From IMG/VR virus record IMGVR_UViG_3300042477_000769: a stretch of DNA of 64,000 bases, one strand, 5' to 3'. The notes under the pieces were generated by a model that saw only the letters and a program-made list of their open reading frames with translations, was not told the origin of the DNA and ran no database searches. This document shows positions 5,645 through 51,218 of the stretch, in pieces (the stretch's first letter is position 1; every line of letters starts with the position of its first letter). A program made the translations under genes and the position numbers. The DNA comes from a virus (lineage: Duplodnaviria > Caudoviricetes).

Positions 5645-6088
5645 ATGATGGAACCGAGAAAAAACCGAAGCGATAAGTACCAATGGATACTCCTCGAAAC
5701 CGCCTGCTCCAACGAAATGCTCGAATCCTTCTGCAACGAAGACAGCATCTCGTCTCGCTTAAACCCCTTTCAATATAATGAAAATCTAATTGATTTAGAA
5801 GATCAATTGAAGAAAGAATTTTGGAGAGTGGTAGAAACTTTGTTAACTCCTCGTCAACGTCAGGTGATTCGATTGTATGCTGATGGTTATACCCAGATGG
5901 AAATTGCTAAGATGTTAAATGTTAATCAAAGTTCAATTACGAAATCGCTGAACGGTAACGTGGATTATAAGAACGGGAAAAAGATCTACGGTGGCGCGAG
6001 AAAGAAAATCCGCAAAATCATCGAAAACGACACCAAGATCAAAGAAATCTTACAGAAAATCGCCGAATGTCGAGATGAAAAATGGTAA
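5645..6088 (+). CDS. Sigma-70 region-4 / sigma-like HTH transcription factor
   Basis: LLTPRQRQVIRLYADGYTQMEIAKMLNVNQSSI; SD GAGGTG at 5639-5644. Confidence 0.7.
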   Translation: MMEPRKNRSDKYQWILLETACSNEMLESFCNEDSISSRLNPFQYNENLIDLEDQLKKEFWRVVETLLTPRQRQVIRLYADGYTQMEIAKMLNVNQSSITKSLNGNVDYKNGKKIYGGARKKIRKIIENDTKIKEILQKIAECRDEKW

Positions 6089-6094
6089 GTCACT

Positions 6095-6934
6095 GTGACA
6101 CTTTGCTCTCAATGCCAAATGCCTCAAACTCAATTTGTGCCCAAGACAAAATGGTGTGCCACCTGTCATCAAAACTATAAAAAGAGAAAATATCAAGAAA
6201 ATTTATCAGCCAGTAGATACTATACTAACCAAAGAAGAGCGGCAAGAATTCAATGGTTTCAACAACTTAAAGCCAATATTCCTTGTACGGATTGTGGAAA
6301 AATATATGATCCCGTTTGTTTAGATTATGATCACGTACCAGGTCGAGGCATTAAATATAAAAATGTGTCTCGGATGGTGTTAGATAATAGTCCGAAAGAA
6401 AAGATCTTAGAAGAAATCAAGAAATGTGAATTGGTTTGCGTGTTATGTCATAATGCGCGGACCTTTTGTCGTTTAAAAACGGCCACTGCTTATAAACCAC
6501 ATCAACAAAGAAATATTAATATAATTAATCAGTTCAAAGAACAACCGTGCGTTTACTGTGGTCAACAATACCCTAGCTATAATATGCAAATGGATCATAT
6601 CAATCCAGCACACAAGTTATCTAATATATCACAGTTGAAAAGTAGTAAAGTAGAAATTTTGCATCAAGAATTGGCTAAATGCCAGGTGTTATGTGCTGTA
6701 TGTCATCGGCTTAAATCGATTATTGAACAAAAGGCCGGAAAATATTTACTTGCCAAATCTAAAATTGCTAAAAAGAGGTTATATTTTGATGGATATGTCA
6801 AAGAGTGCGGTCGATGCCGGCAACTAAAAGAACTTAGCTGTTTTAGAAAACATCAGCACACTACTTCTGGCTATAACACTTATTGTATAAGCTGTTTTAA
6901 TGAGTACCGACGACAACGAAGAGCCAACCTGTAA
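6095..6934 (+). CDS. HNH endonuclease with two tandem HNH modules
   Basis: CTDC..LDYDHV..KCELVCVLCH and CVYC..MQMDHI..KCQVLCAVCH, plus a C-terminal Cys4 cluster. Confidence 0.8.
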   Translation: MTLCSQCQMPQTQFVPKTKWCATCHQNYKKRKYQENLSASRYYTNQRRAARIQWFQQLKANIPCTDCGKIYDPVCLDYDHVPGRGIKYKNVSRMVLDNSPKEKILEEIKKCELVCVLCHNARTFCRLKTATAYKPHQQRNINIINQFKEQPCVYCGQQYPSYNMQMDHINPAHKLSNISQLKSSKVEILHQELAKCQVLCAVCHRLKSIIEQKAGKYLLAKSKIAKKRLYFDGYVKECGRCRQLKELSCFRKHQHTTSGYNTYCISCFNEYRRQRRANL

Positions 6935-7778
6935 AATCTATTTGTTAACTAATGTAATCAATAATAAGATTTATATTGGTCAAACTTGGAATTCAGTTCA
7001 CTCTCGAATGGGTAAAAAAGGATCAAAATATAGGAACTCTCCTTATTTGTATAAGGCTATTGTCAAATATGGGGCCCAAAATTTCAAATATGAAATCTTG
7101 GTTAAGTGTTATGATCAAGAGACAGCGGATTATTTAGAAGAATATTATATTAAGCAATATCGAAGTCAAGATTCTCATATTGGTTATAATTTGAAAGAAG
7201 GCGGTCGAGGAGGTAAGCATTCGTTGGAAACCAAAGAAAAGATCTCTCAATCCGTAAAGAAACAATTGGCCAATTTAACTCCAGAAGAGTTATTAGAGAG
7301 AACGGCCAAAATATCTAGTTATTGGTCTGGAAAGCAGCGAGGCCCACAAACAGAGCAATGGAAACAAGAAAATTCTGCTAAAATTAAAGCTTGGCATGCA
7401 GAACATCCACACCCTATGTTGGGGAAGAGTCATTCAGCGGAAGCAAAAGCAAAAATTAAGCGGAGTAGTTTGGGCAGAAAGTGTTCTCCGGAAGCTATTC
7501 AAAAGCGAGTGGCAAAATTAAAGATAGATCAAGAATTAGAATTATCTATTATTATGGCGTATCAGAGTGGGGATCTTATTTCTGAAATTGAAAAAGAATA
7601 TGGGGTAAGAGTATCAACTATTTACCGAGTGCTGAAGAGGAACGCTATTCCGTTAAGGGGATGTGATCAGAGTTGGGTCGGTAAGAGTCATACTCCAGAA
7701 ACCTTGGAAAAGATGTCGAGAGCGAGGAAGAAGTATTGGGAGCGCCAACGAGTGATGGGGACAATTAATCAAGAATAA
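6900..7778 (+). CDS. GIY-YIG homing endonuclease (NUMOD3 repeats)
   Basis: KIYLLTNVINNKIYIGQT, GYNLKEGG, HSLETKEKIS, HSAEAKAKI, HTPETLEKMS. Confidence 0.9.
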   Translation: MSTDDNEEPTCKIYLLTNVINNKIYIGQTWNSVHSRMGKKGSKYRNSPYLYKAIVKYGAQNFKYEILVKCYDQETADYLEEYYIKQYRSQDSHIGYNLKEGGRGGKHSLETKEKISQSVKKQLANLTPEELLERTAKISSYWSGKQRGPQTEQWKQENSAKIKAWHAEHPHPMLGKSHSAEAKAKIKRSSLGRKCSPEAIQKRVAKLKIDQELELSIIMAYQSGDLISEIEKEYGVRVSTIYRVLKRNAIPLRGCDQSWVGKSHTPETLEKMSRARKKYWERQRVMGTINQE

Positions 7779-16442: not shown

Positions 16443-17552
16443 ATGAGTCAACGGTCCTCTTTAATGGCTTGGACTCAAGCCGCTCTCGCTAAACATCATA
16501 ATTACTATGATTATTCTGCGGCAGTGTACCGTGGCAGTGATAGTAAAATTACTATTATTTGTCCGATTCATGGTAAATTTGAACAAACTGCCGGATCACA
16601 TTTAAAAGGTCATGGTTGTTCAGTCTGCTCGTATCAACAACGAGGCCGGCAAAAATCTTTGACCTTATCTCAATTTGTAGAAAAATCTCAATTAATCCAT
16701 GGAGTTACTTATGATTATTCATTAGTAACATTTGTTAATATTTTAACAAAAGTTAAGATAATTTGTTCTATTCACGGAGAATTTGAAATTCTACCCAAAT
16801 TCCATTTAGCCGGCCATGGATGTCAGCAATGCGGAAAAATAAATAAATCTAATAAACTGCGAGCTTCTACTCAAGATTTTATTGAAAAAAGTGAGAAAAT
16901 ACATGATCATAAATATGATTATCATCAAGTAAATTATATAACTTCTAAGCATAAAGTAACTATTACTTGTCCACTTCACGGTAATTTTAATCAAGTAGCT
17001 GGAGATCATTTAGCTGGTTATGGTTGCCCGAAATGTTCCAAATTATACCGTCCGACTACTGCAGAATTTATTGCCAGCGCACAATTAATTCATCAATTCA
17101 AATATGATTATAGTTTAGTCAATTATCAATCCAGTAAAATTAAAATTCCCATTATTTGTTCCGTCCATGGGACTTTTTGGCAAACACCTCATGCTCATAT
17201 TATTGGCAAATGTGGATGCCCTAATTGTAGTAATTGGAGTTCTAAAAAAGAACAAGCTTGGATTCAATCCTTAAATAATCCGAATCTTAAACTTCAACAA
17301 ACTATCAAAATTAATAATCGAATCTTTAAGGTGGATGGGTTTGATCCTGCTACTAATACTATTTACGAATTTTACGGAGATTTTTGGCACGGCAATCCTC
17401 AAGTCTATTCAGCTGAAGCGGTAAATTCCATTAATAAAAAGAAATTTGGAGAGCTGTATTTAGCTACGTTGGAGAAAGAAAATATATTGAAAAATCATTA
17501 CCATTTAGTCCATATTTGGGAATATGATTGGGATTTGTTAACAAAAACCTGA
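16443..17552 (+). CDS. Zinc-ribbon-repeat PD-(D/E)xK-type putative homing endonuclease
   Basis: Four repeats YDYS..Y......ITIICPxHG.F.Q....HL.G.GC..C; C-terminal KVDGFDPATNTIYEFYGDFWHGNP..HIWE. Confidence 0.8.
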   Translation: MSQRSSLMAWTQAALAKHHNYYDYSAAVYRGSDSKITIICPIHGKFEQTAGSHLKGHGCSVCSYQQRGRQKSLTLSQFVEKSQLIHGVTYDYSLVTFVNILTKVKIICSIHGEFEILPKFHLAGHGCQQCGKINKSNKLRASTQDFIEKSEKIHDHKYDYHQVNYITSKHKVTITCPLHGNFNQVAGDHLAGYGCPKCSKLYRPTTAEFIASAQLIHQFKYDYSLVNYQSSKIKIPIICSVHGTFWQTPHAHIIGKCGCPNCSNWSSKKEQAWIQSLNNPNLKLQQTIKINNRIFKVDGFDPATNTIYEFYGDFWHGNPQVYSAEAVNSINKKKFGELYLATLEKENILKNHYHLVHIWEYDWDLLTKT

Positions 17553-17593: not shown

Positions 17594-18487
17594 ATGTTAA
17601 AATCTATCGCTCAAGAATTAGTAATTGTTGATCCTCCTTCGCAGGAACCGCCGTTAATGTTAGAAATGAGCGATTCCTCACCAGAAGATGGTCTGGATCC
17701 GGTAGAAGTATATGATAATTCTATAACTAATCTTCATATTGTCATGGAATTACCTGGAGCCCCACCTGGCACTCAAGACCCTGAACCAGTCTTAGAGGTC
17801 TCGGAAGAAGAACCAGAAGAAAAACTATCTGAGAAAGAATCAGATGAAAATGATGCTAAAGCAGCTAAAAATGAAAAATGGAACTGGGCTAAACATGGGC
17901 CTACGGGATTTATTGCTTGGGTCAAGGAGCGATGTGATGATGTGCCGAAACATTCGGGTTATGATTCGGCCGGTTTAGAGCGCGCTATTGCCTACCTAGA
18001 GCGGCTCGATAGCGAAGTCTCCAAAGCCATGCGCCTCGACATTGATGGAGAATTAGACGCCAATCAAGTAGAAAAAGTGAGAGCGGTCATTGATAACGGG
18101 ACAGAGCGCTTATTAGATCGTTTAGATAAAGTAAAAAAGAATAAGAAAAAGAGTCGTAAAAAGAAAGCCGATGTCACGGATAGTTTGGTGAAAGAGGCTC
18201 AAAAAATTACTGGAGTGCAAGGCGTATTTGTGACGGTACCCTTGCTAATTTCTAGAATAGCTAGAGTATGTATTAATGGTATGGTCTCTGGTGGCCATGA
18301 TATTGAAGATTTATATGAGCGACAAGTTAAGTTCTATAAATTAAATGATCGTGAACAAGCAGAAGTAATGCAACTATTATCTGATATGGGTTATGCTTTA
18401 AAGCAAGACCGTGGATTTATGCCAGAAGATGATTTACATATTGACGATAGTAGCAATATGGATTTTGCCGCTAACTATAAGGGTTAA
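17594..18487 (+). CDS. Hypothetical protein (probable head-associated)
   Basis: SD GAGG upstream; MLKSIA|Q, ENDA|K and VKEA|Q motifs. Confidence 0.65.
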   Translation: MLKSIAQELVIVDPPSQEPPLMLEMSDSSPEDGLDPVEVYDNSITNLHIVMELPGAPPGTQDPEPVLEVSEEEPEEKLSEKESDENDAKAAKNEKWNWAKHGPTGFIAWVKERCDDVPKHSGYDSAGLERAIAYLERLDSEVSKAMRLDIDGELDANQVEKVRAVIDNGTERLLDRLDKVKKNKKKSRKKKADVTDSLVKEAQKITGVQGVFVTVPLLISRIARVCINGMVSGGHDIEDLYERQVKFYKLNDREQAEVMQLLSDMGYALKQDRGFMPEDDLHIDDSSNMDFAANYKG

Positions 18488-19438: not shown

Positions 19439-20152
19439 ATGGGCAAGCCAAAATCCAACACGGCAGAATTTATTGCTAAAAGCAATAAAAAACATCGTCA
19501 TTTTTATGATTATCAACAAGTGGATTATATTACTCAACATATTCCAGTCGTTATCAAGTGTCCTATTCACGGATTTTTTACTCAAAAACCAAAAGCACAT
19601 TTACGGTATGGATGTAATAAGTGTGCCCAAGAAGTAAGATTAAAATCAATTCGAAAAACTAGTGAAGAGATATTATCTCAGTGTTTCTTAGTGCATCAAG
19701 ATCGATATGATTATTCTAAGATGCAATTTCTTTCGACTCGCCAAAAAGTAGAAATAATTTGCAAAATCCATGGGCCGTTTTGGCAGACGATGCATGATCA
19801 TTTGGCCGGCAAAGGCTGTGCTAAATGCATTAATAAAGTATCCAAAAACGAAACTCGATGGTTAGATTTAATGAGCATCGACCCAAAATTTAGAAATTAT
19901 AAAATTAACTTAAGCAAGTCATATTATGTCGATGGATATGATCCAATGACTAAAACTATTTACGAGTTCAATGGTGATTATTGGCATGGTAATCCTAGTA
20001 AATTTTGTCCGGATAAAATTAATAATCATACTAAATGTAGTTTTGGTCAATTATATCAACAAACTTTAGCTAAAGAAGTAGAGTTTAAAAAACATGGCTA
20101 TAAAGTTATATCTATTTGGGAAGTTGATTTTGTGAATATTTATGGCCGATGA
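19439..20152 (+). CDS. Zinc-ribbon PD-(D/E)xK-type putative homing endonuclease (paralog of 16443..17552)
   Basis: IKCPIHG, IICKIHG, YVDGYDPMTKTIYEFNGDYWHGNP, SIWE. Confidence 0.8.
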   Translation: MGKPKSNTAEFIAKSNKKHRHFYDYQQVDYITQHIPVVIKCPIHGFFTQKPKAHLRYGCNKCAQEVRLKSIRKTSEEILSQCFLVHQDRYDYSKMQFLSTRQKVEIICKIHGPFWQTMHDHLAGKGCAKCINKVSKNETRWLDLMSIDPKFRNYKINLSKSYYVDGYDPMTKTIYEFNGDYWHGNPSKFCPDKINNHTKCSFGQLYQQTLAKEVEFKKHGYKVISIWEVDFVNIYGR

Positions 20153-22472
20153 TAGTTTATTTTTAAAATTAAAGAATCAATTGATGATGTTAGATCCGGT
20201 AGTCTTTGTGGAATCTAACCTGACATTAGATGGCAAGCCTTTTAGATTGCGAGGGAATGGATATCGACCCTTTGCGGAGATTTATCGGTATATTGGGATT
20301 AAGGCGTTGGAGCCAAATTCGAAGCCGATCATTATCGTGAAAGGTAGACAAGTGGGCGCCACCACCATGGCCTCCGCCCTAGAAATGTACTTCATGGGCT
20401 CCGGCATTTTTGGCACCGGCAGCAAGCCTCCGGTTCGAATTATTCATGCCTTTCCCCAATTAGAATTAGCGGCAGCCTACTCTAAAACCAAATTAAATCA
20501 AATTATTTCTTCTTCGGTCCCATTACCATCAGATCCCAATAATAAGTCATTAAAGCCCAAAGCTTATATGCAATCGTTATTGGATCAATCTACTTCCACT
20601 AATGATTCGTTACATTTTAAGCAATTTGTAGGTGGTAATCATTTATGGATTGAGTCTGTGGGTTTAGATGGTGATAGAGTAATGGGACGCAGTGCGGATA
20701 TTATCTTCTTTGATGAATGTTTTCCGTATAATCAAAAAATAGCAACTAATCAAGGTAAAAAATCTATTGGTCAATTATATGATTTATTTACCAATAATCA
20801 AAATGTTCCATTAGTTTTAACTTTTAATTTAGAAAATGAAAATTTTGAATACAAAAAAATTGTTAATGTCTTTAATCGTGGAGATAAAAAATTAGTTAAT
20901 ATTAAATTAAGTGGAAGAAAAATTTCATGTACTGATAATCATCGGTTTCTGACTGAATTTGGCTGGAAAGAAATAAAAGATATTCCTATTGGAACATTAA
21001 TTAAAAGCTACGATGATACTTATAAAAAAGTTAGTTGGTTAGTTTTAGATAGCATTGAATATTCGAATGAGACAAAAACAGTCTATGATATTGAAGTAGA
21101 AGATAATCATAATTTTATTTTGGCGCCAAATAAAAATGGAAAGCATCAAGGTGGTCCGATAGTTCATAATTGCCAGAAAACTACTAGTATTGCCATTGGA
21201 AATTCTCTTAAAACTTTAACAACAGCCAAATATGGTAAACCGTCTAAAGGAGTTCAAGTTTATTTTGGAACTCCTAGAAGAAAAGGCTCTGATTTCCATA
21301 AAATGTGGCAAACTTCTTCTCAACAATATTATTATTTAGGATGTGGAAAATGTAAAGAATATTTTCCTCTATATACTCCTGGATCAGATGATTGGAAGAA
21401 TATTTGGATTTATGGATTTATGGTTAAATGCCCACATTGTGGTCATGAGCAAAATAAATTAGAAGCGGCAGAAAGAGGTAAATGGACTGCCTTACGAGAC
21501 CCAGATGATCCGGATTGCAAAATGGTTGGGTTCCATATCAATCAATTATACATGCCTATGTTTAGTCGAGAAGATATGGATAATGAAATGCCGGGGAATC
21601 ATCCTATTAATACTGAACGTGTCTTCATGAACGAAGTTATGGGAGAATTCTTTCAAGGAGATTCTAGTCCCATTACTCCAGAAGAAATTAAAGAGAAATG
21701 TGGAGATGACCGTAAATTTAGTGCTCGTATTGCTCCTTCTCGAAATGGTACCGATCAACAAATCGTAGTCTTAGGTATCGATTATGGTGCTAGAGCAGAC
21801 GTAGAACAATTAGCCGATATTGAAAATTCTAAATCTAAAGGTCAATCCTATAGTACAGCAGTGGTGTTATCGGCTAAAGGCCCAGGATTATTACATATTG
21901 AATTTGCCACTAAATTTAAAAGAAACGATCCGGAAAGCAAAAAGGGTCTGATTGAACAAATTATTAGACAATATGGTGTGAATTTAGCGATTGGTGATAT
22001 TGGATATTCTAATGATTTTTCTCAAACGTTACATCAAATTTATGGGGACAAATATATTGTCTCTCGTGCTCATCCAAAAGTCAATAATCATATCAAATAT
22101 AGTATAGATGCTTTTCCCAAAGAATTAGTCTTTGAAAGAGATTATTATATTGGAGAATTATATGAACAATTAAAGAATGGGATGATTAAGTTTCCTTTTG
22201 GAGACTATGAAAAAATTGCTTGGTTAATTGATCATTGTTGTAGTATGGAAATTAAGCCCTCTATTTCTCGAATGGGGGCGGATCCTCAAATCCATTATGT
22301 CAAGGGCGGAACTCCCAATGACGGATTTATGGCCTTATTGAATGCCTATTTGGCATATAAATTTATCATTACTAAGGGATTTACTAATAATAATCCTATT
22401 TTGCAAAAATCTAATTTTTCTAATATGAATAAGCCATTAGTAACTGGTGGTTATATTTCTCGTAAATTCTGA
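20142..22472 (+). CDS. terL: Terminase large subunit (lambda GpA-like), intein-containing
   Basis: Walker A KGRQVGATT; Walker B IIFFDE; YFGTP; Zn clusters CGKC and CPHC; nuclease VLGIDYG..AIGDIGY..PND. Confidence 0.92.
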   Translation: MADDSLFLKLKNQLMMLDPVVFVESNLTLDGKPFRLRGNGYRPFAEIYRYIGIKALEPNSKPIIIVKGRQVGATTMASALEMYFMGSGIFGTGSKPPVRIIHAFPQLELAAAYSKTKLNQIISSSVPLPSDPNNKSLKPKAYMQSLLDQSTSTNDSLHFKQFVGGNHLWIESVGLDGDRVMGRSADIIFFDECFPYNQKIATNQGKKSIGQLYDLFTNNQNVPLVLTFNLENENFEYKKIVNVFNRGDKKLVNIKLSGRKISCTDNHRFLTEFGWKEIKDIPIGTLIKSYDDTYKKVSWLVLDSIEYSNETKTVYDIEVEDNHNFILAPNKNGKHQGGPIVHNCQKTTSIAIGNSLKTLTTAKYGKPSKGVQVYFGTPRRKGSDFHKMWQTSSQQYYYLGCGKCKEYFPLYTPGSDDWKNIWIYGFMVKCPHCGHEQNKLEAAERGKWTALRDPDDPDCKMVGFHINQLYMPMFSREDMDNEMPGNHPINTERVFMNEVMGEFFQGDSSPITPEEIKEKCGDDRKFSARIAPSRNGTDQQIVVLGIDYGARADVEQLADIENSKSKGQSYSTAVVLSAKGPGLLHIEFATKFKRNDPESKKGLIEQIIRQYGVNLAIGDIGYSNDFSQTLHQIYGDKYIVSRAHPKVNNHIKYSIDAFPKELVFERDYYIGELYEQLKNGMIKFPFGDYEKIAWLIDHCCSMEIKPSISRMGADPQIHYVKGGTPNDGFMALLNAYLAYKFIITKGFTNNNPILQKSNFSNMNKPLVTGGYISRKF
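20718..21170 (+). mobile_element. Mini-intein (Hint only, 151 aa) directly after Walker B of TerL
   Basis: Begins CFPYNQKI; block B CTDNHRF; block F VYDIEVEDNHNF; ends IVHN; +1 Cys; splicing restores FFDE-CQ. Confidence 0.92.
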
Positions 22473-32332: not shown

Positions 32333-32364
32333 AATCCTTAAATATCTAGACCAGGAGATTTTGA

Positions 32365-35300
32365 ATGTTTCTTAAAATAGGTGAAGCTATAGAAATTAAT
32401 GGAGTAGAGAGCACTGAGTCTTGTCTACCCGCTGTCAATCCCGAAATTTTAGAAAATTTCAAAAAAATCGCCTCTAATTTAAAAAAGATTGCCCCCAAGG
32501 CCGAGGACTTTCTCTACTTCTCTGCCGTAATGATGCATGCCGCAGAGGCAGCCGCTCTCAACGATGACGGCACCCGCAAACTCAATGCCAAAGGCCAACC
32601 AGTCGAAGTAGGTTGGGATAAACGAGGAAACACTTGGAGATGGACTTCTAATGACCCCAATGTGAGACCTTATAAAAATGCGAATGGCGATATTTTTCCA
32701 GAAGAAGAATTAGTTAAAGCCTATAAAAAATGGGTAGGAAAACCTCTGTGCATTGATCATAAATCCAGTTCCGTCGATCATGTCAGAGGTTTTATCGTTG
32801 ATACTTACTATGATCGTAATTTAAAACGAGTGATTGCTTTATGCGCTTTAGATAAGGCTGGTTACCCTCAATTAGCTAGACAAGTAGCTACTGGAGTTTC
32901 TAATTGTGTATCCATGGGTACGGCGGTAGGAAAAGCTATTTGTTCTGATTGTGCCACCGTAGCTAGAACAGAACATGATTTTTGTGATCATATGAGACGC
33001 AAATCATGTTATGGAGAAATTAATTTAGATTTAAATCCTATAGAATTATCGATAGTAGTAAATGGTGCAGATCCTAAAGCTAGCATTAAGCATATTATTG
33101 CGGCGGCTAACACTTTAAATTCTTATGTAGAAAGCAAACAACAAGAAATAAATAAGTTTGCGGATAATTTTAGCGCTCGTTTGAGTTTTAATGTTGGGGA
33201 TCAAAGAGATAATGCTTCGGTCACTGATATTGAAGTTAATTCTAGTGATTTAGAAAATTTCAAAAAAGATGTTGAAAAAGCTATTGCAGATTTCCAGGAA
33301 CTGCAATCTTCATTAAATGAAGAAGAAAAAATGCAAGAACATACTAATGAAACTGCATTTGATCAATTGCCAGAAGAGATTAACTCTTCGGCTGATTCTG
33401 GATTGGCTCCCCCACATGCAAGATTTGCATCCGCTAAAGTAGGGGTGGACCCTATTGCTGAGCTTCAAGAGGTCACTAAAGGTATTGAGGCCAAGTTAAG
33501 CCAAATGAAACACAGCTTAGATAAGTTAGTAAACACTTCTACACATACACAAGAGGAAACTATGTCAGGTACAAACAATATGAATAAGAAAGGTTATTAC
33601 CAAGGCGCTGGTGGAGTTAATGAACCTACTCCAGGACAAGCTAAATATCCTAAAGATCCGTTAAACGAGCAATTACGTGAACGGGAAGATAAACAAATGG
33701 TTGGTCAATCAGGATTCCCTGGTGTTGGACCCGTGGATGGAATGCATCCCAGCCCAGATTCGGCAGAACCTGCTAATGAATTAGAGCGCAAAAAAATGTT
33801 AGCTCGGGCAGAATCCGAAGAGCGCGCAGTTCGCCGACAAGCCATTATTAATTTAGCTAAATCAGCCTTAGAGAATAAGCAAGCTTATTTCCAAGGTGGT
33901 GGCGGCGTGAATGAGCCCACTCCTGGTAAAACCAAATATCCTGCTGACAAGTTAAATGAACAAGCTCGTGATAAAGAAGATAAGCAAATGGTTGGCCAAA
34001 AACCTTTCCCTGGTGTAGGCCCGGTCGATGGATTACACCCTAGTCCTAGTTCGGCTGATATGGCAGACGAATTAAAGCGTAAAGAAATGTTACGCCGAGC
34101 CTCTACCCTGAGTGCTAAATTTGCTTATGCTAGCAATAATGACGGTTCGATTAATAAAGGTGATTGTGCGTGGGAAGTTTATCGTGGCGACAAATTAATT
34201 TTGAGCGCTTCAGTTAATGAATTATCTGGTGGAAAACCAAATAAATTATATGCCAACATTGCTACCAAACCATTTGGAGCTAAACTATTAGAAAAAGTAA
34301 AAGCTCATGGAGTAGATAAAGTTCGTGCCTTAGTTAAAAGCGCTCAAGTTGCTCCTGAAATGACCCAAGAAATGGCGCCTCCTGCTGAAGCAGCTCCGGC
34401 TCCGGCTCCTGCTCCTGCTCCAGCTGGATTAGATCCAGTAGAAGACGCAGGTAAATCTGGCGATGTCAAAGAGTCTGCTTCTGAGTTAGCTGAAAAAGTT
34501 AGAGATTTAAGCTCTGATTTAGTAGAAACAGTTCGCGCGTTAGAAGGCGAAAAAGCTGAAATGGGCGAAGTAGATGGCGCCGGTGGCGAGATGGCCGCTG
34601 CAGCTTCCTTTAGTACCAAAACATTAAATTCTTTTAGAAAAGAATTAAATGGAATGTTAACAGAAGCGATGAAAGAAGCGGTAGCTAGTTTAGATGGTCA
34701 TGCGGAAGAATTAGATCTTATTAGTGGATTATATGATAAGGGAGTGGTATCCACAGCCAATCAAGAATTAGTAAATAACATTGCAGAAGATGCCTTAACA
34801 GAAGCTAAGACTGCAGTGGCTGATGGATTCAAATTAATGTCTGCTTTCGTGAAGTATGCTCGTGGCACTCAAGCTATTGTCAAACGTGCAGAAATTGAAG
34901 CTGAACTTGAAGCATTAGCTGAAGGAGAAAATATGGATGGCGTACATAGCAGTAACGATGGCGATGATGATTTAATGGCCATGATTTCTGACACTAATTC
35001 TGAATTAGAAGATGTCAAATCTTTAATGGAAGAAGATAAAGACATGGAAGATGAACATGAAAAATCATTATTTGAAACTGTCGTAGAAGAAGGCGAAGTG
35101 GAAGCTGACGCTTTAGCTGATGATCATAAAGATGATGACAATGATCTCAAGGCTGGAGATTTGAAGCCAGAAACTCAACTCAAGCCAGAAATGTTATCTC
35201 AAGCCTTTAATAGCAAAGCTGGTCGCGCTGCCTTAAGAGCCAAATTAGCTGCTGATGCCTTAGGTAAACAAGATGATGGTCAAGTTCAAGATATGTCGCG

Positions 35301-35964
35301 GGCTCATTTTAGCGATATGTTAGATGAGGCTAATGATTTAGCTGATGGTCAAACAGAATTAGATGTAAAGCCTTCTAATAACTTAGGTTATGTAGAAACC
35401 TTATCGGAAGTTAACAAATCCATGATGGATTTGGCTAAAGCTCCACCTAAGGTTCGTAAAGAGGCTGAAGCTATTCACAAATTAGTCTCGGAAGGCAAAT
35501 TAGATCCATCAGATTTAGATGAATTAGTCTCTGAAGGATTAGATAAAGATGCCGTAGCTTACTACCGCAAATACTGGGGTCAAGTAGATGGTGGCTCTGA
35601 ATTTGCTAATGAATTAGCTAAAGAGCATGTGAAAGCTAAGATGGAAGAAGAGCTAAATAACTATAAAGTTAAAATTGCTAGAGCTTATGAATTAGCTTAT
35701 GATATGGTGGAACGTGGTTTGTGCGCTTCCGATCGTATTCATGTGACAGCTCAAGTAGAAGAAATTATGAAGTTTAATGATGAGTCATTTGAATCTTTAA
35801 AGAGAGTCGTCGCTCAACATAACCCAATGTTACAAAAGTCTGCTCATCGTATGCCGCAAGTAGGGTTTATTGGTGCGGGCGAAACTCATAGTGCAACATC
35901 CGCAGATGATGATTGGTCTCAATTATCGGCAGCATTTGCTAAGACTAACAAAAGATTATTCTGA
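32365..35964 (+). CDS. Prohead (capsid maturation) protease fused to a long acidic scaffold region
   Basis: NGDIFPEEEL..GKPLCIDH..VRGFIVD..VSMGT..IELSIVVNGADPKA (assemblin-type His/Ser pattern), then an acidic coiled-coil region; lies between portal and MCP. Confidence 0.8.
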   Translation: MFLKIGEAIEINGVESTESCLPAVNPEILENFKKIASNLKKIAPKAEDFLYFSAVMMHAAEAAALNDDGTRKLNAKGQPVEVGWDKRGNTWRWTSNDPNVRPYKNANGDIFPEEELVKAYKKWVGKPLCIDHKSSSVDHVRGFIVDTYYDRNLKRVIALCALDKAGYPQLARQVATGVSNCVSMGTAVGKAICSDCATVARTEHDFCDHMRRKSCYGEINLDLNPIELSIVVNGADPKASIKHIIAAANTLNSYVESKQQEINKFADNFSARLSFNVGDQRDNASVTDIEVNSSDLENFKKDVEKAIADFQELQSSLNEEEKMQEHTNETAFDQLPEEINSSADSGLAPPHARFASAKVGVDPIAELQEVTKGIEAKLSQMKHSLDKLVNTSTHTQEETMSGTNNMNKKGYYQGAGGVNEPTPGQAKYPKDPLNEQLREREDKQMVGQSGFPGVGPVDGMHPSPDSAEPANELERKKMLARAESEERAVRRQAIINLAKSALENKQAYFQGGGGVNEPTPGKTKYPADKLNEQARDKEDKQMVGQKPFPGVGPVDGLHPSPSSADMADELKRKEMLRRASTLSAKFAYASNNDGSINKGDCAWEVYRGDKLILSASVNELSGGKPNKLYANIATKPFGAKLLEKVKAHGVDKVRALVKSAQVAPEMTQEMAPPAEAAPAPAPAPAPAGLDPVEDAGKSGDVKESASELAEKVRDLSSDLVETVRALEGEKAEMGEVDGAGGEMAAAASFSTKTLNSFRKELNGMLTEAMKEAVASLDGHAEELDLISGLYDKGVVSTANQELVNNIAEDALTEAKTAVADGFKLMSAFVKYARGTQAIVKRAEIEAELEALAEGENMDGVHSSNDGDDDLMAMISDTNSELEDVKSLMEEDKDMEDEHEKSLFETVVEEGEVEADALADDHKDDDNDLKAGDLKPETQLKPEMLSQAFNSKAGRAALRAKLAADALGKQDDGQVQDMSRAHFSDMLDEANDLADGQTELDVKPSNNLGYVETLSEVNKSMMDLAKAPPKVRKEAEAIHKLVSEGKLDPSDLDELVSEGLDKDAVAYYRKYWGQVDGGSEFANELAKEHVKAKMEEELNNYKVKIARAYELAYDMVERGLCASDRIHVTAQVEEIMKFNDESFESLKRVVAQHNPMLQKSAHRMPQVGFIGAGETHSATSADDDWSQLSAAFAKTNKRLF

Positions 35965-37078: not shown

Positions 37079-37603
37079 ATGGCAAAACCCAGCATAGAAC
37101 ACGAATTAGTCTTAGGAATGCAACAAGAATTGCAACCTTATGAAAAAAAGCAAGCAATGACCAATTTGGTCAAAGCGGCAGAATATCTTAATTCTGCTAT
37201 GGAAATATTGGAAGATGCTGGGTTAACCGCTAAAGCAGATCGAGTATTAAGAATCTTAGCTAAAATTGCTCAAGAACAAGATATTAATCAGGCTAAACTG
37301 TCTTCAGATGAAGAATTTTATCAAAAAATAATGAAGTGGTTAGATGATCCAAAAACTCCAGTAGACCCAGAACATCCACAACCCGGAGAAGAATTATCAT
37401 TTAACAGTCTATTAACCGAGCCAGCCAAAGATGAATTAACTTTTCAAAGTTTATTAACGCAAAAAAATGATCCTAAACCCTCCAATGATGACTTATTATT
37501 TAAAAGTATCGCCATGGAATTAGATGAAGATGATGAGTTAGTAAATTTACAAGATGAAGATCAAGAAAGCGATGAAGACGATTTATTTGAAGATGCAGAT
37601 TAA
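37079..37603 (+). CDS. Helical-motif protein with acidic tail
   Basis: SD GGAG upstream; shared motif followed by AKIA|Q and DINQA|K. Confidence 0.7.
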   Translation: MAKPSIEHELVLGMQQELQPYEKKQAMTNLVKAAEYLNSAMEILEDAGLTAKADRVLRILAKIAQEQDINQAKLSSDEEFYQKIMKWLDDPKTPVDPEHPQPGEELSFNSLLTEPAKDELTFQSLLTQKNDPKPSNDDLLFKSIAMELDEDDELVNLQDEDQESDEDDLFEDAD

Positions 37604-38460
37604 CTAATTAATTCTAAATATTTAGAATATTTCCTAGGTAAATATATAGTAGCCTCCTGATACATCCAAGATAATAACTTCTTAACTTGCAAATTGCCAC
37701 CCACCGAAAGTGTGGTGGTAATTGTATTTTTACCGCTTAAATGCAAACTCGGCGTAATATTTAAGTGTTGTTGGATAATATTTTTAACACCTTGGCAAAA
37801 ATCATGAGTTGATGTTATTTGCCAGCCCCAATTGATATAGCCCGTGGGTGTTGGCTGTTTCTGGTATAAACAACCATCTCCATCAAAATATCCACGAATA
37901 AAATGTTGTTGCATCTCAACTGAGGTTAACCAAGAAGGGAAAGTTAAGGTTAAACTTTTATTAGGCGTACAGCCTAAGTTAGTTAATTGCTGAGAGATAG
38001 TTTTATTATTTATTTTTAATAGGCAAGCTGGATAAGGAGGATTATCTATTTCTTTAATGATGCTGGTCGGAGAAATAATATCTCTAATTGTTTCTAGATG
38101 AGATTTGTCTAATGCCTGTAATTTGCAGCTAATTTCGTAATGATGTGGTGGCTTAATATAATTATTGCCGTCAGCATATAAAAATCCTAAAATATAAGCT
38201 TTTTCTTGAGAATCAATAACTTGAAAAAAATTTTCATCAGCTAAATATTTGGTAGTATATTGGGTCGTGGAACGAATTGGAATATTATTCCGACGTAAAG
38301 AATTAAGAACAAAAGTAGCCGAACAATTAAATTGGTGTGCTATTTGTGAACTAGTGGATCCAGATTGATATAGATCAATTATCTGGGAAATAACAGTAGA
38401 ATTATATTTTTTTCTTACCATGGTTGGATAACAAGATATATATCTGTAAGGAAAAACCAT
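37600..38460 (-). CDS. Free-standing LAGLIDADG homing endonuclease with N-terminal HTH
   Basis: KAYILGFLYADG and HFIRGYFDGDG. Confidence 0.88.
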   Translation of the reverse strand: MVFPYRYISCYPTMVRKKYNSTVISQIIDLYQSGSTSSQIAHQFNCSATFVLNSLRRNNIPIRSTTQYTTKYLADENFFQVIDSQEKAYILGFLYADGNNYIKPPHHYEISCKLQALDKSHLETIRDIISPTSIIKEIDNPPYPACLLKINNKTISQQLTNLGCTPNKSLTLTFPSWLTSVEMQQHFIRGYFDGDGCLYQKQPTPTGYINWGWQITSTHDFCQGVKNIIQQHLNITPSLHLSGKNTITTTLSVGGNLQVKKLLSWMYQEATIYLPRKYSKYLELIS

Positions 38461-38496
38461 GCAATATTGTAAAGAGATTAAAGTCTGGAGGACACC

Positions 38497-39186
38497 ATTC
38501 TTAGGCTAGTTCAAACCGGCAATGCGTTGCCGATGTCGTTTATTGTGGATCCGTCGGCTGAGTTCCAACCGGGGCAAATAGCGGAGCTGACCGTCATCGG
38601 CAACCAAGTCATGGCCACTGTCAGCAACGGCACCGCTCCTATTGGCATTATTGATGATATCAAGACTCGTGCTTTTACCAACGTATCGTGGAATGAGGTA
38701 GTGGTCGTACCTGCAGTTGGGGTACCAGGACCTAATGGAACTACCGTTACTCCGATTGATATTAAGGCAGAATTAAGAAAACCGAATATTGTGCCGTCTA
38801 GTTTTACTTCTACTATTGATGTGGTGTTAAATGCGGAAAATGGAGTTATTAAATTTGTGGCGGGCACTCCGTTAAATTTTGATTTAACTGGCACGGGCAC
38901 ACCGAATGCGATTCGAACCATAGTTAATTATACTTATTATGTGGCTAATATTCCGGGAGATGATAGTACTCAAGGATCAGGTCGAGTAACGGTCTGGTTT
39001 GATAGAATCTTTTTTCAGACTGATCAATATGAGACGAATCAACAATATCCAGTGAGAGCTAATTTGTATGTGAGTGAAATTGGAATGTTAACTACCCGAA
39101 GACCTAGCAATATTCATCCGGCAGTCGGGATGGTGACTGCGCCACCGTCACCCACCTTACCATTTATTGAAGTTTTATGGTACTAA
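38497..39186 (+). CDS. Capsid decoration-like beta-rich protein; probable ATT start
   Basis: The frame of ORF 38527 extends to ATT 38497, 5 nt after GGAGG; (M)LRLVQTGNALP parallels MALKLLQPGTQP of 45830; both carry GSG(K/R)VTxW. Confidence 0.55.
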   Translation: MLRLVQTGNALPMSFIVDPSAEFQPGQIAELTVIGNQVMATVSNGTAPIGIIDDIKTRAFTNVSWNEVVVVPAVGVPGPNGTTVTPIDIKAELRKPNIVPSSFTSTIDVVLNAENGVIKFVAGTPLNFDLTGTGTPNAIRTIVNYTYYVANIPGDDSTQGSGRVTVWFDRIFFQTDQYETNQQYPVRANLYVSEIGMLTTRRPSNIHPAVGMVTAPPSPTLPFIEVLWY

Positions 39187-46701: not shown

Positions 46702-47715
46702 ATGAATATGTTTAATAACAAGGGCGAATTGAACGCAAGTTCTTTAAAAGACGCTCTACAATCACTGGCTAAATATGCTTCAGTGTTGGAAGAAAATCAA
46801 CCCTCAAACATGGGTTTCGCAGGTCAACCATCTTTAAGCGATGACAAACGTGATGAATTAATTTCTCGCGCTATTAATACTCAAGATGGTAAAGTGGCCT
46901 TAGCTCAAGCTATGGCGAATCCGATTCGCCGAAATTTGGACTACCACGGCATTGCTCGTCGAGCATTAGTGGTAGACCCACTTCCTATGGGAGCCATGCC
47001 CACTTATGACCGAGATATTGATGTGGCTGCTGTTGTTATTTCTAGCAATGGTACCGGACCAGAGTCTCGTGTTTTCGGTGACCGCGTAGTTGTTCCAGAG
47101 TTTGAAATTTTCGCCAACCCCACCGTTAGAATTGCCGAAGTTAAAAGACGCCGATTCAATGTTATTGATCGTGCAGTTCAAAAAGCTCGTCAAGAAATCA
47201 TGGCTCAAGAAGACGCCAACGTGTTTGCCGCATTAGATGCTGCTGCTAGCGTTGAAAACTCTTTAGTCGATGTCGCTGATGCCGGCTTATTAAAGAGAGA
47301 CCTCGTTGAAATTAAACAACAAATCGATCGTTGGGACTTAGTCACCACCAAATACTTCATGAATATCAATGAATTCACTGATATTCTCAAGTGGGGTAGC
47401 GGTGGTGGTCAAGGTGTCGGTGGTGGTGACTTCGATCCTGTAACCATGAGAGAAGTTCTACAAACCGGCTTGTATGCCCATATTTGGGGTACGGATATTA
47501 TGGTGTCGAAGATTGTCCCCCCGGGCACGATCTACGGCGCTGCCGATCCCGAGTTCGTTGGTGTAATGCCAATTCGCCAAGACATCGAAGTGTTGCCGGC
47601 TGACGAACCGAAGCAATTAAAGCTAGGCTGGGTAGTTTCCGAAATCATCGGTATCGCCATCGTCAACCCTCGTGGTTGTGCGGCTGGGCGCAAGAGCGTA
47701 GTTATCGGAGCCTGA
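46702..47715 (+). CDS. Major capsid protein (HK97 fold), 337 aa
   Basis: SD GGAG 5 nt before ATG 46702; E-loop/spine-helix pattern VVVPEFEIFANPTV..RFNVIDRAVQKARQEIMAQEDANVF; P-domain FMN..HIWGTDIMVSKIVPPGTIY; followed by a terminator. Confidence 0.88.
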   Translation: MNMFNNKGELNASSLKDALQSLAKYASVLEENQPSNMGFAGQPSLSDDKRDELISRAINTQDGKVALAQAMANPIRRNLDYHGIARRALVVDPLPMGAMPTYDRDIDVAAVVISSNGTGPESRVFGDRVVVPEFEIFANPTVRIAEVKRRRFNVIDRAVQKARQEIMAQEDANVFAALDAAASVENSLVDVADAGLLKRDLVEIKQQIDRWDLVTTKYFMNINEFTDILKWGSGGGQGVGGGDFDPVTMREVLQTGLYAHIWGTDIMVSKIVPPGTIYGAADPEFVGVMPIRQDIEVLPADEPKQLKLGWVVSEIIGIAIVNPRGCAAGRKSVVIGA

Positions 47716-47744: not shown

Positions 47745-47770
47745 CAAAAGCCACCTTACGGTGGCTTTTG
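47745..47770. terminator. Intrinsic terminator after MCP
   Basis: CAAAAGCCACC-TTAC-GGTGGCTTTTG. Confidence 0.85.
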
Positions 47771-47787
47771 TCGTTATATCAATTCAT

Positions 47788-48354
47788 ATGAAAAAATTAA
47801 ATTTAATTGGATTAACTTTTCACCGATTAACTGTGATGGCGGAAGCTCCGGACATTAATCATCGTTCGGCCTGGGTATGTCAATGTGAATGTGGAACCAT
47901 TAAGAATATCAAAACGGAAGAATTACGATCGGGAGGCACTAAATCTTGTGGTTGTTGGAATGTCGAGCAACGCGCCAAACGAGTAAAGAACATGTATTCT
48001 AAATGCATTAAATATAGCCCAGAAATAGCATCAGCGAGAAAAATTTGGAAAACTAGATATCCAGAAATAAATTTTGACGATTTCTATCATATCTCTCAGC
48101 AAAATTGTTATTATTGTAATTCTGCTCCCGCTAATTCACAAAATGTTGCCACTAAAAAATCTTCTCAAGAAATGAAAGATAAAGGTCATTTTATTTATAA
48201 TGGATTAGATCGTTTAGATAATAACAAACAACATTCAAAAGATAATTGTGTCGCTTGTTGCAAATATTGTAATTATGCTAAAAGAGAAAGAACTGAACAA
48301 GAATTCAAAGATTGGATCATTAAAGTTTATCATTTTTATCTTCAACCAAAATAA
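47788..48354 (+). CDS. HNH-like phage endonuclease
   Basis: IGLTFHRLTV..WVCQCECG..LRSGGTKSCGC; CYYC..NGLDRLDN..NCVACCKYCNYAK; start placed at ATG 47788, downstream of the terminator. Confidence 0.8.
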   Translation: MKKLNLIGLTFHRLTVMAEAPDINHRSAWVCQCECGTIKNIKTEELRSGGTKSCGCWNVEQRAKRVKNMYSKCIKYSPEIASARKIWKTRYPEINFDDFYHISQQNCYYCNSAPANSQNVATKKSSQEMKDKGHFIYNGLDRLDNNKQHSKDNCVACCKYCNYAKRERTEQEFKDWIIKVYHFYLQPK

Positions 48355-48676: not shown

Positions 48677-49810
48677 ATGATCGAAGTAAAAGAGATGATA
48701 GCTAATGGTTTTGCTATTAAGAAGATAGCAGAAAAATTACATTTACCAGAAGTAGCAGTTAAACAAATAATAGCAGACAATCAATTATCTTTAGTCAAAG
48801 AAACATTTAGCGAACAACATATAGTTACAATTATTCAATTGTATCAAGAAGGAGTATCCATTAAGGCATTAGCAGAAAAGTTTTCCATTGATAAACGAAG
48901 AATAATCAAATGGTTAACTGAGCATCAAATAACGATTCGAACTAGTTCTCAAGCCATTAGAACCACTAATTTTCAAGAAAGTTATTTTGATATCATTGAT
49001 GATGCTAATAAAGCTTATTGGTTAGGATTTTGTTATGCCGATGCTTATAATTGTGATACTAATAACACTTTCATTCTAACGTTGAAGGGAGAAGATTATT
49101 CTCATTTGGTTAAATTAGCAGAATTATTACACTTACCAAGCAGTAAAATTAAAACTAGTAATTTATCGGTCAACCATAAGATTTATCCAATTGCTTCCTT
49201 AAAATTATATAGTAAACATATTTGCCAGCAGATGAGTTCTTTAGGCTGTCCTCGAGCCAAAAGTTTTACTATAACTTTTCCTACTTGGTTAAGAAAAGAG
49301 CTACAAGTAGATTTTATTCGAGGATTATTTGATGGAGATGGGTCTTTGTGCAAAAGAAAATTAAATAATGAATGGAAATGGTCATTAACTACCACTCAAG
49401 AATGTGGAGAAGTAATTAAGAACATAATAATGGAAGAACTAGGATTAACATTAACCCTATATAATATTTCTGAAACTGGAAATAATACTTTTAATTTAGA
49501 GGCGAGTGGTAATAAAAAAGTTTTAACATTAGCTCATTGGTTATATTCGCCATCATCTGACAGCAATAGATTAACTAGAAAATATGACAAATATTTAGAG
49601 TTAAAGAAACAACAATTAAGTCGAACTTTTAGTCGAGATAGTTATAGAGTTTCTCAGACTTCCATTAATAACATTATTAAAGATTTAGAGTTTTTGACTA
49701 TTATGGATATTTCTCACAAATATCGATTGCATCCTCGAACTATTTTAAAAATACAGCGAAAATATGGAGCAGCGATGAAAATTGCTGATAAAAAGCTATC
49801 GGTTATATAG
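48677..49810 (+). CDS. Free-standing LAGLIDADG homing endonuclease with HTH domains
   Basis: KAYWLGFCYAD and DFIRGLFDGDG; paralog of 37600..38460. Confidence 0.88.
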   Translation: MIEVKEMIANGFAIKKIAEKLHLPEVAVKQIIADNQLSLVKETFSEQHIVTIIQLYQEGVSIKALAEKFSIDKRRIIKWLTEHQITIRTSSQAIRTTNFQESYFDIIDDANKAYWLGFCYADAYNCDTNNTFILTLKGEDYSHLVKLAELLHLPSSKIKTSNLSVNHKIYPIASLKLYSKHICQQMSSLGCPRAKSFTITFPTWLRKELQVDFIRGLFDGDGSLCKRKLNNEWKWSLTTTQECGEVIKNIIMEELGLTLTLYNISETGNNTFNLEASGNKKVLTLAHWLYSPSSDSNRLTRKYDKYLELKKQQLSRTFSRDSYRVSQTSINNIIKDLEFLTIMDISHKYRLHPRTILKIQRKYGAAMKIADKKLSVI

Positions 49811-49832
49811 AGGGTAAGAAAAATGAGGATCT

Positions 49833-51218
49833 ATGTGTGGTATTGTATTAAGTAATTTTCTGTCCCTAGAGGAAGTGTCGGATAAATTATCGATTATTTT
49901 GCATCGGGGACCGGATGGTCATCGGGTGGAGACAATTAATAATTTTACTGTTGGACATTGTCGATTGGCCATTCAAGGCAGATCCTCGTCTTATGATCAG
50001 CCGTTTACTAAAAACGGATTAACTATTGCTTATAATGGAGAATTATGGAATAATAGCGTTAATAGTTTATCCCAAGAATTAGGAATTACCGAGGAGGGCA
50101 TTTCAGATACCGAATTATTTTTATTAGGATTTGAGAAATATGGCCCGGCCATTTTTCAGCAGGTAGACGGCGTATTTGGAGTGGCTATTATTTCTGGAGA
50201 CACAGTGTTCGTGGCTCGTGATTATATTGGAGAAATTCCAATTTATTATTATTGGGAAGACCAAAAGTTATTAGTAGCCAGCGAATTAAAGGTATTTGCT
50301 GGATTACCCTTATCCAAAGTCCAGTTATTACTGCCGGGGCATTATTTAAAGATAAATTCTACTCTAGAAGTAGTTAAATACTATTCCTTACCGATGACTG
50401 AAGTGTCAGATTCTAAAGAAGAAATAATCTCTAAATTTAGAGATTATGTAGTACAAGGTGTGCAAAAGAGAATTCCAAAGGAAGTAGATTACACGGTATT
50501 ATTATCTGGAGGAATAGATTCGACTATTATTGCAGCGTGCTTAAAGCAAGTCAATGCTAATTTAGAAGCATTTACCATTCATTTGGATGTTAATAAAGAC
50601 AAAAAAGTAAAGAATAATGATTTATATTTTGCTAGATTAGCGGCGCAGCATTTAGGAATTAAGTTACATGAGGTGATTATTACTGAGGAACAGGTCCTCT
50701 ATTATTTAGAGGAGACCATTAGAGTGATTGAGGATAAGTCATGGACTCAAGTATCTTCTGGATTACCTCATTTATTATTGGGAAAAGCGATTAAGAACAC
50801 TAATTTTAAGGTAGTATTTTCTGGATCTGGGAGTGATGAAATTTTTGGTTCCTATCCGGCGCAAAAAAGATGGCAATGGCAAGATAATCAATATGACAAA
50901 GCCAGGAAAAATTTAGTCTTAAATGTTCATAAAAACAATACTATTAGAGAAAATAAATGTTTAATGGCCTCATCTCTAGAGATTAGGAGTCCCTTTTTGG
51001 ACCAAAAATTTTTAGAATATGCGGTTAATATTCCAATTCAGTATCGATTTGACAATAAAAAAATGAAACCTATGTTGAGATATGCTTTTCAAGACCTCTT
51101 GACTCCGGAGTTAGCCTGGCGAGAAAAAATTTGCGAAGGCGATGGAGTGGGAATCGAAAACATTATTAAAGCTAAAAAAGACGAAATCAAGAGAATTTAT
51201 GACAAAATTTTTATTTAA
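49833..51218 (+). CDS. asnB: AsnB-like Ntn glutamine amidotransferase / ATP pyrophosphatase
   Basis: MCGIV (Cys2), HRGPD, GHCRLAI, YNGE, LLSGGIDS, SGSGSDEIFGSY, RSPFLD, KPMLR; SD GAGG. Confidence 0.85.
   Translation: MCGIVLSNFLSLEEVSDKLSIILHRGPDGHRVETINNFTVGHCRLAIQGRSSSYDQPFTKNGLTIAYNGELWNNSVNSLSQELGITEEGISDTELFLLGFEKYGPAIFQQVDGVFGVAIISGDTVFVARDYIGEIPIYYYWEDQKLLVASELKVFAGLPLSKVQLLLPGHYLKINSTLEVVKYYSLPMTEVSDSKEEIISKFRDYVVQGVQKRIPKEVDYTVLLSGGIDSTIIAACLKQVNANLEAFTIHLDVNKDKKVKNNDLYFARLAAQHLGIKLHEVIITEEQVLYYLEETIRVIEDKSWTQVSSGLPHLLLGKAIKNTNFKVVFSGSGSDEIFGSYPAQKRWQWQDNQYDKARKNLVLNVHKNNTIRENKCLMASSLEIRSPFLDQKFLEYAVNIPIQYRFDNKKMKPMLRYAFQDLLTPELAWREKICEGDGVGIENIIKAKKDEIKRIYDKIFI

Follow-up and report, generated by a model that had tools for sequence, protein, structure and literature searches.

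The DNA analysed here, a 64,000-nucleotide stretch of the IMG/VR virus record IMGVR_UViG_3300042477_000769 (Duplodnaviria; Caudoviricetes) that is referred to as the window, belongs to a lake megaphage and looks like a part of its structural and packaging region. It is rich in A and T, with a GC content of about 35% and a fraction of G or C at third codon positions (GC3) of about 0.23–0.24, and nearly all of its genes are found on the plus strand. Within this background, short patches in the sigma gene, in terL, in the portal gene and in other genes of the window contain codons ending in G to the left of a point and codons ending in C to its right. Such patches, termed G/C units and composed of a G-arm and a C-arm, had been described in the initial annotation of the sequence, which placed them at intein junctions and next to homing endonuclease genes. 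We scored every codon boundary of the window with the statistic S, the excess of G over C at the third positions of the k codons to the left of a point plus the excess of C over G in the k codons to its right, with k=20 as standard. The resulting units, and one unpaired arm, are distributed as follows:

5642–5773 (+), sigma-gene unit 1: G-arm 5642–5683, C-arm 5684–5773; S=19 at 5689
5897–6069 (+), sigma-gene unit 2, weaker: G-arm 5897–5985, C-arm 5986–6069; S=12 (k=20) and 18 (k=30)
17888–18040 (+), unit in gene 17594–18487: G-arm to 17980, C-arm from 17981; S=13 (k=20) and 18 (k=30)
20268–20426 (+), terL unit over the Walker A motif: G-arm 20268–20327, mixed segment 20328–20354, C-arm 20355–20426; S=18
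23398–23517 (+), portal N-junction unit: G-arm 23398–23457 in the N-extein, C-arm 23458–23517; S=21
25672–25845 (+), portal C-junction unit: G-arm 25672–25773, C-arm 25774–25845; S=24 (k=20) and 34 (k=30)
32485–32604 (+), lone C3-rich arm without G partner in gene 32365–35964, seen in the third-base strings
38527–38634 (+), unit at the start of gene 38527–39186: G-arm 38527–38589, C-arm 38590–38634; S=23
47490–47670 (+), two weak units at the 3' end of the major capsid protein (MCP) gene, assigned by phrog_2522: centres at about 47514–47529 and 47634; S=12

Among the strong switches at k=20, the one at 25776 reaches S=24, while those at 38589 (S=23), 23457 (S=21), 5689 (S=19) and 20354 (S=18) bear out the positions that had been proposed from inspection, namely 38589/90, 23457/8, about 5680 in the sigma gene and about 20355 in terL. 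Weaker peaks were found at 7761 (S=14), at 17980 (S=13) and at 5983, 47529 and 4940 (S=12 each); the switches previously placed at about 17975 and 5990 are thus present but less pronounced at 17980 and 5983, with both rising to 18 at k=30. An empirical null was obtained from 193 AT-rich related loci comprising about 625,000 codons, where S does not exceed 16 and where peaks of at least 13 are divided into 31 of G-to-C and 38 of C-to-G orientation. In bases 1–50000 of phage T4, which has a GC3 of 0.24 and contains six endonuclease genes, S ranges from –15 to 13. The top peak of T4, at the noise level of S=13, is located at about 16642 in gene 56, which adjoins segF and which we take to be the target of SegF. 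Two further peaks of the window, at 9496 and 56150 (both S=13), are probably noise at the level predicted by the null, and the reverse (C-to-G) extremes of the window are merely the outer flanks of the G-then-C patches.

Contigs of lake metagenomes from 2020 and 2024, which are independent of each other, agree base for base across the N-junction patch of the portal gene, and the amino acid sequence of the patches is 95–100% conserved in comparison to relatives. Since independent samples agree and the encoded proteins are conserved, sequencing error is excluded. Chance or an artefact of assembly or sequencing has become a negligible explanation in view of the null from relatives and T4, the identity of the sequence across independent samples and years and the strictly synonymous nature of the changes. 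We consider the G-then-C codon switch confirmed as a real feature of this genome.

Endonuclease and intein sequences were identified with Pfam and PHROGs. The count for the window is ten free-standing endonuclease genes and one tandem pair of inteins, and the annotated elements comprise the following:

4812–5636 (+), free-standing gene of a homing endonuclease with GIY-YIG and helix-turn-helix (HTH) domains (Pfam GIY-YIG, 6e-11)
6095–6934 (+), free-standing HNH endonuclease gene (phrog_2255, 3.6e-38)
6900–7778 (+), free-standing GIY-YIG and NUMOD3 endonuclease gene (Pfam)
16443–17552 (+), DUF723 / zinc-finger endonuclease-like gene (Pfam; phrog_559, 1e-64; synteny)
19439–20152 (+), second DUF723 endonuclease-like gene (Pfam, PHROGs, synteny)
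20718–21170 (+), terL mini-intein of 151 amino acids without endonuclease domain (Pfam Intein_splicing)
23458–25746 (+), tandem LAGLIDADG inteins of the portal gene, A with 376 and B with 387 amino acids, the latter from 24586 (Pfam LAGLIDADG_3)
31670–32332 (+), free-standing HNH endonuclease gene (Pfam HNH, 5.7e-10)
37600–38460 (–), free-standing LAGLIDADG and HTH endonuclease gene (Pfam)
47761–48354 (+), free-standing HNH / EndoVII-like endonuclease gene (phrog_1035, 1.9e-18; phrog_374, 1.9e-17)
48677–49810 (+), gene with HTH and weak LAGLIDADG domains (Pfam)

A link between the patches and homing endonucleases and the intein is supported by their distribution. Twelve peaks reach an S of at least 12, and for 10 of them the nearest boundary of an endonuclease gene or an intein is at most 450 nt away. 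This zone contains 23% of coding positions, and the enrichment, which the initial annotation had set as a check, is reflected in a permutation P of 2e-5. The five peaks with S of at least 18 are all located within 202 nt of such a boundary, and the exceptions are the two peaks at 9496 and 56150. Besides the paired units, the third-base strings reveal lone arms, with C at 4941–5012 inside the GIY-YIG gene at 4812, G at 7626–7766 at the 3' end of the GIY-YIG and NUMOD3 gene (S=14 at 7761) and C on the plus strand at 37650–37715 within the LAGLIDADG gene. The fourth, at 32485–32604, is placed 150–270 nt to the right of the HNH gene at 31670; the one-sided stretch of C had been recognized before, albeit at 32420.

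The strongest unit resides in the portal gene, whose inteins A (CYSADTEVLT...VQYAN) and B (SYDEHTEILT...VQGN) are paralogous and meet at 24585/6. At the N-junction, the flip falls exactly on the splice junction (GAG/TGC) and the C-arm takes up the initial 20 codons of intein A. At the C-junction, the G-arm comprises 25 codons at the end of the intein followed by 9 of the extein, and the C-arm lies in the C-extein. The switch expected there at about 25750 does exist, but it is found at 25773–6, 27–30 nt downstream of the true junction at 25746/7 (VQGN/S). All four arms show the polarity expected for a 3' tail versus a newly primed strand. Only the outer boundaries of the composite insert carry patches, with none detected at the internal junction between A and B. 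The portal intein is variable in other genomes, where many relatives contain a single B-like intein of about 1.2 kb and two (L003 and L058) an insert of 2.3 kb. A second intein site, about 126 nt downstream of the first at around residue 42 of the C-extein, was found in L052, L058, L061, L075 and L079, with both sites being occupied in L058; in the window this second site falls just past the C-arm.

In terL, the two arms bracket the Walker A motif KGRQVGATT. The relative L068 contains at this place, after residue 73, an intein-like insert of 142 amino acids (L068:6724–7149) that ends in THN/TT and interrupts the Walker A loop. Its insertion point corresponds to nucleotide 20360 of the window, within two codons of the switch, with the C-arm beginning at 20355. 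By comparison with L068, the Walker A position of the window is predicted to be an empty intein homing site, and the proximity of the centre of the unit to a site that is occupied in a relative is evidence in favour of target sites being marked by the centres. The empty site is about 200 nt away from the DUF723 gene at 19439, which is located between gene 18490 and terL and variably present among relatives, a layout that recalls free-standing endonucleases aimed at intron or intein sites. The terL sequence of the window reads GRQVGATT, with an alanine at the position of the expected P-loop lysine, where L068 reads GRQVGK ahead of its insert. Further downstream, neither junction of the mini-intein is accompanied by a patch in the third-base strings. 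The lack of patches at this intein without a homing endonuclease gene and at the A/B junction in the portal would fit homing of whole active units. Inside the mini-intein, at 21080–21116, relatives L002–L004 contain an extra insert of about 585 nt. Contigs from several runs diverge from the window at this place and at 32319–32351, the 3' end of the HNH gene, which suggests allelic variation at the borders of mobile elements.

At free-standing endonuclease genes, the centres are located in neighbouring genes. The centre of sigma-gene unit 1 is 47–53 nt to the right of the GIY-YIG gene at 4812, that of unit 2 is 110 nt to the left of the HNH gene at 6095, and the centre in gene 17594 is 428 nt to the right of the DUF723 gene at 16443. 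Both DUF723 genes are insertions by synteny with relatives, and since relatives lack the gene at 16443 at that position, it is mobile. The centre at the start of gene 38527 is 129 nt from the LAGLIDADG gene at 37600. Contigs from two lake runs skip 258 nt inside the latter (37905–38164 of the window), and a shortened allele of this gene may thus be circulating in the population. The two MCP units, initially placed at about 47515 and 47625, cannot be separated from noise by their score alone, but they are found 130–250 nt to the left of the HNH gene at 47761, which had previously gone unrecognized. A further switch suspected near 49960 does not exceed S=10 and is thus at the level of noise; the same value is the maximum within 500 nt of the HTH and weak LAGLIDADG gene at 48677.

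The described arrangement resembles intronless homing as known for the Seg and Mob enzymes of T4 and for F-CphI of cyanophages, where endonuclease genes reside between conserved genes with the target in the neighbour, where flanks are rewritten by repair, where HNH members nick one strand and where the target of a free-standing enzyme may coincide with an intron or intein site (Edgell, Gibb and Belfort, 2010, PMC2988022); the terL Walker A motif of the window would be such a case. Free-standing phage endonucleases cleave away from their own genes, and enzymes of the HNH family nick (Edgell, Gibb and Belfort, 2010, PMC2988022). Unlike the patches described here, known co-conversion tracts copy the sequence of the donor and lack G/C polarity, and T4 does not contain such units.

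The nature of the recoding is manifested in the codon classes. At four-fold degenerate sites, G amounts to 59% on left arms compared to 12% in the background, and C to 63% on right arms compared to 16%. Among codons ending in a purine (NNR), the share of G is 52% on left arms and 18% on right arms, and among those ending in a pyrimidine (NNY), the share of C is 24% on left arms and 73% on right arms. As these class-wise counts show, amino acid content is not the source of the pattern. Leucine codons on right arms have shifted from TTA to CTN, so that synonymous first positions are involved as well. The arms have a GC3 of about 0.55–0.65 in a background of about 0.23, which confines the enrichment of G and C to the arms. 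Since C on left arms (9.9% of third positions) and G on right arms (9.7%) both remain near background, the pressure acts from A or T towards G on one strand and is not a general enrichment in GC. From the frequencies at four-fold sites, we derive a shift of the equilibrium odds of about 14-fold.

These numbers bear on the chemistry proposed in the initial annotation, where A would be converted to G on the 3'-ended strand by deamination of adenine in single-stranded DNA or by tolerance of G:T mispairs. The polarity agrees with this proposal, and so do the two-fold classes, where about 70% of sites with mostly A in relatives read G in NNR codons of left arms and about 64% of sites with T in relatives read C in NNY codons of right arms; A>G is also among the strand-asymmetric classes at human hotspots (PMC7615360). 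The claim that NNT codons on the left and NNA codons on the right stay unchanged holds for two-fold codons but not for four-fold sites, where left arms contain 14% T instead of 41%, right arms contain 8% A instead of 30% and purines on left arms rise from 0.42 to 0.74. A footprint of adenine deamination in single strands would leave the pyrimidines of the affected strand in place. Polarized against the majority base of relatives at four-fold sites, the rates on left arms are 0.67 for A-to-G and 0.68 for T-to-G, and those on right arms 0.88 for A-to-C and 0.69 for T-to-C, with ancestral states being approximate because synonymous sites between lineages are saturated (retention outside patches is 35–48%); composition is therefore the safer argument. 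The equal rates on left arms and the shift from pyrimidines to purines are not accounted for by A-to-G changes alone. Deamination of adenine as sole cause is thus contradicted by the replacement of both A and T, and we regard either version of this chemistry as a very improbable account of the whole pattern.

Effects on translation or on the transcript are equally improbable. In such a scenario, folding would be paced by a run of slowly translated NNG codons ahead of rapidly translated NNC ones, or the G-arm and the C-arm of the mRNA would pair. The highly expressed MCP gene prefers NNC codons and NNG codons are rare, and two units are found at extein-intein boundaries and two near gene starts. 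Conversely, the folding energies of the 150-nt units at all seven sites equal those of controls with codons shuffled within arms (z –0.7 to +1.2), providing no sign of a hairpin or cruciform, and there are units in the middle of genes (codon 70 of terL, codon 129 of gene 17594), no patches at the A/B intein junction or the terL mini-intein, and homologous proteins in about 100 relatives that manage without such codons. The orientation of genes does not separate causes acting on DNA from those acting on transcripts, since a G/C unit is its own reverse complement. Bias linked to expression, which had been named as a potential refutation, does not explain patches that form islands of 120–200 nt in genes with a GC3 of 0.2–0.3 and whose left halves contain the rare NNG codons; it may contribute in the MCP gene only, where GC3 is 0.40.

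Comparison with relatives indicates the direction of the change. More than 100 relatives that match the portal N-extein at 63–91% identity were obtained from IMG/VR and from JGI metagenomes, where their contigs reach 480–498 kb. In the GenBank phage set, the portal of Bacillus phage G is a distant match and the only one at protein level, and no relative of the window was found at DNA level. The window itself represents one strain that recurs with a DNA identity of at least 99.6% across many lake-water metagenomes of 2020 and 2024. In these metagenomes we found this single clonal strain and no polymorphic intermediates; a metagenome scan for closer relatives reached at best about 91% amino acid identity, and the members of protein clusters at 90% identity all originate from the strain of the window. 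Exact-pattern scans of IMG/VR for alleles of the strain lacking the intein or for the DNA of the patches returned zero matches, and the contigs of four lake runs, whose cover is fragmentary, contain neither an intein-free joint nor variants within patches.

Among relatives, 94 distinct portal alleles with an empty site carry A or T at the patch codons, and the patch state is thus derived, as had been predicted for relatives without the elements. A further possibility is that the elements arrived from a GC-richer donor phage and brought the patches along as ordinary co-conversion tracts, which would be plausible insofar as homing regularly converts the flanks as well (PMC2988022). A GC-rich donor would introduce G and C on both sides instead of G followed by C, none of the relatives resembles the patches, even at the highest GC3 of 0.54–0.57, exact searches of IMG/VR for patch DNA found no match and, unlike in a classical co-conversion tract, the alleles of relatives that contain homologous elements have A or T at these codons and lack the patch sequence. 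We consider import from a donor improbable, if slightly less so than the two preceding explanations.

The reading that we favour, although we would call it evenly balanced between right and wrong, views each G/C unit as the cumulative, strand-polar footprint of breakage and repair at the target site of a homing endonuclease in this lineage. On either side, G is gained on the strand that runs 3' towards the centre, as a process at a central break would give and as the initial annotation had claimed. With a break at the centre, the plus strand would end 3' on the left and the minus strand on the right. Over about 60–100 nt on each side, the strand with its 3' end towards the centre has gained G at nearly every position that the protein permits, and the plus strand accordingly reads G3 and then C3. 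For free-standing endonucleases, the centre resides inside the conserved neighbour gene, 50–430 nt from the endonuclease gene. For the pair of inteins, the two outer junctions would hold the halves of the cut site, provided that the composite unit homes into empty sites, and the portal arms would represent the tails of the extein that invade and the intein DNA that is copied first from these tails. Nicking enzymes would account for lone arms. In this reading we infer both the identity of the centres as cleavage points and a repair bias as the driver. One candidate for the latter is mismatch correction that retains G in a polar heteroduplex, equivalent to a strand-specific GC-biased gene conversion, where glycosylases that always spare the guanine in G:T and G:A mispairs would yield G whatever the starting base. 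A second candidate is error-prone resynthesis next to 3' ends, which likewise could produce G regardless of the starting base. The strength of the effect would be set by a lineage-specific factor of phage or host.

Mirrored strand-asymmetric mutation is known from human meiotic double-strand-break hotspots, where resection and resynthesis that act in a strand-specific manner were named as the cause (Hinch et al., 2023, PMC7615360). The mirroring is shared with the phage units, in which A or T changes to G on the left and to C on the right. The human footprint extends over 1–2 kb, includes C>N and A>N classes and is found in rare variants (PMC7615360), whereas the phage arms span 60–100 nt, show only changes from A or T to G, are filtered for synonymy and are fixed near saturation. 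GC-biased gene conversion, which also causes a strong local shift towards G and C at sites where recombination starts, favours both bases alike on either side, whereas here G is favoured on the 3'-ended strand only. Chi sites and the GT-rich preferred-pairing islands of RecBCD/AddAB and RecA resemble the units in the G-rich 3'-ended strand and the mirrored orientation, but the units lack a recurrent motif, and what is enriched in them is a base composition, limited to silent sites. We did not find a published description of a strand-mirrored G-then-C scar.

The parallel to Chi leads to the strongest competitor of a break-repair footprint, in which the patches would be selected cis-acting features that protect from cleavage, that extend heterology for co-inheritance or that provide G-rich 3' and C-rich 5' strands at break ends, the latter favouring the loading of recombinase or resisting exonucleases. 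The near-saturation with about 70% of synonymous opportunities used and fairly sharp edges, the equal replacement of A and T as if G itself were favoured, the change of roughly every third base to one unlike the alleles of relatives and an orientation that matches G-rich, Chi-like sequences acting at a break, as generally known for RecBCD and AddAB, would all be in line with selection. At the same time, no k-mer is common to the arms beyond what composition dictates, with neither GTTGCCG nor KTGCCGRT being significant and no word exceeding the null of codons shuffled within arms. Resistance of a 14–40 bp recognition site requires neither 150–200 nt nor polarity, the strongest patches flank an intein site that is occupied and hence immune in any case, and relatives with the same elements manage without patches. 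Selection of this kind is thus in our view unlikely, though far less so than any of the other alternatives.

Several observations weigh against a footprint of break repair. In the 16 relatives with homologous inteins at the same portal site, the N-extein arm does display a weak excess of G (4.25 compared to 1.18, P = 6e-6), which speaks in favour of the footprint, but the other three arms display essentially nothing. The patch of gene 38527 is found in none of 67 distinct relatives, including about 16 loci with a homologous LAGLIDADG gene upstream, and around 60 distinct homologous endonuclease genes of relatives the maximum of S is 14 with a median of 9. T4, despite its six endonuclease genes, equally lacks a strong patch. 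The initial proposal of a general homing footprint is not compatible with these results; the presence of an element is insufficient and a lineage factor is needed and, as judged from the available genomes, the effect is specific to this lineage. The intein-internal arms cannot arise from heteroduplex with recipients lacking the intein, and a single mechanism for all four portal arms is not obvious. Neither of the two candidate drivers covers every arm without extra assumptions or explains the specificity for the lineage. The adjacent non-coding DNA at 38461–38526 shows no skew. The equal replacement of A and T at four-fold sites is unusual for the simple spectrum of a polymerase or of deamination, the extent of recoding and the sharp edges of arms could suit a selected element, and the approximate ancestral states limit any polarized rate. 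Finally, the assignment of some endonucleases, namely the DUF723 genes and the two HNH genes recognized by PHROGs only, postdates the identification of peaks.

A bolder version of the break-repair footprint assumes that a repair activity of this phage lineage or its host deterministically rewrites about 60–100 nt behind every 3' end made by an endonuclease towards G, which would harden the targets and map cuts as paired arms and nicks as lone arms. We regard this proposal as tentative and as rather improbable.

The remainder of the window contains features that are separate from the described units. Three successive open reading frames (ORFs) of 128 amino acids at 3306–3692, 3697–4083 and 4088–4474, two of which have matching antisense ORFs of 89 amino acids, look like a tandem triplicated gene. 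At 52457–53689, the minus strand encodes a nucleotidyltransferase of the CCA-adding / poly(A) polymerase family (PolyA_pol head domain, 6e-41). A repetitive ORF of 2309 amino acids at 56121–63050 is located in a region that has a GC content of 54–55% at 56–60 kb and many overlapping ORFs in alternative frames.

If the centres of the units are cleavage points, the targets of endonucleases would be readable from the genome of an uncultured phage, and perhaps also whether an enzyme cuts or nicks. The polarity of the arms would constitute a natural record of the strand that is processed in homing repair, which to our knowledge has so far been inferred only from the genetics of T4. The absence of strong patches from relatives and T4 points to a lineage-specific factor that is worth finding. 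If true, the bias of about 14-fold from A or T to G on one strand would amount to a strand-resolved biased gene conversion in a virus, and would bear on the workings of GC-biased conversion and on the reshaping of essential genes by selfish elements.

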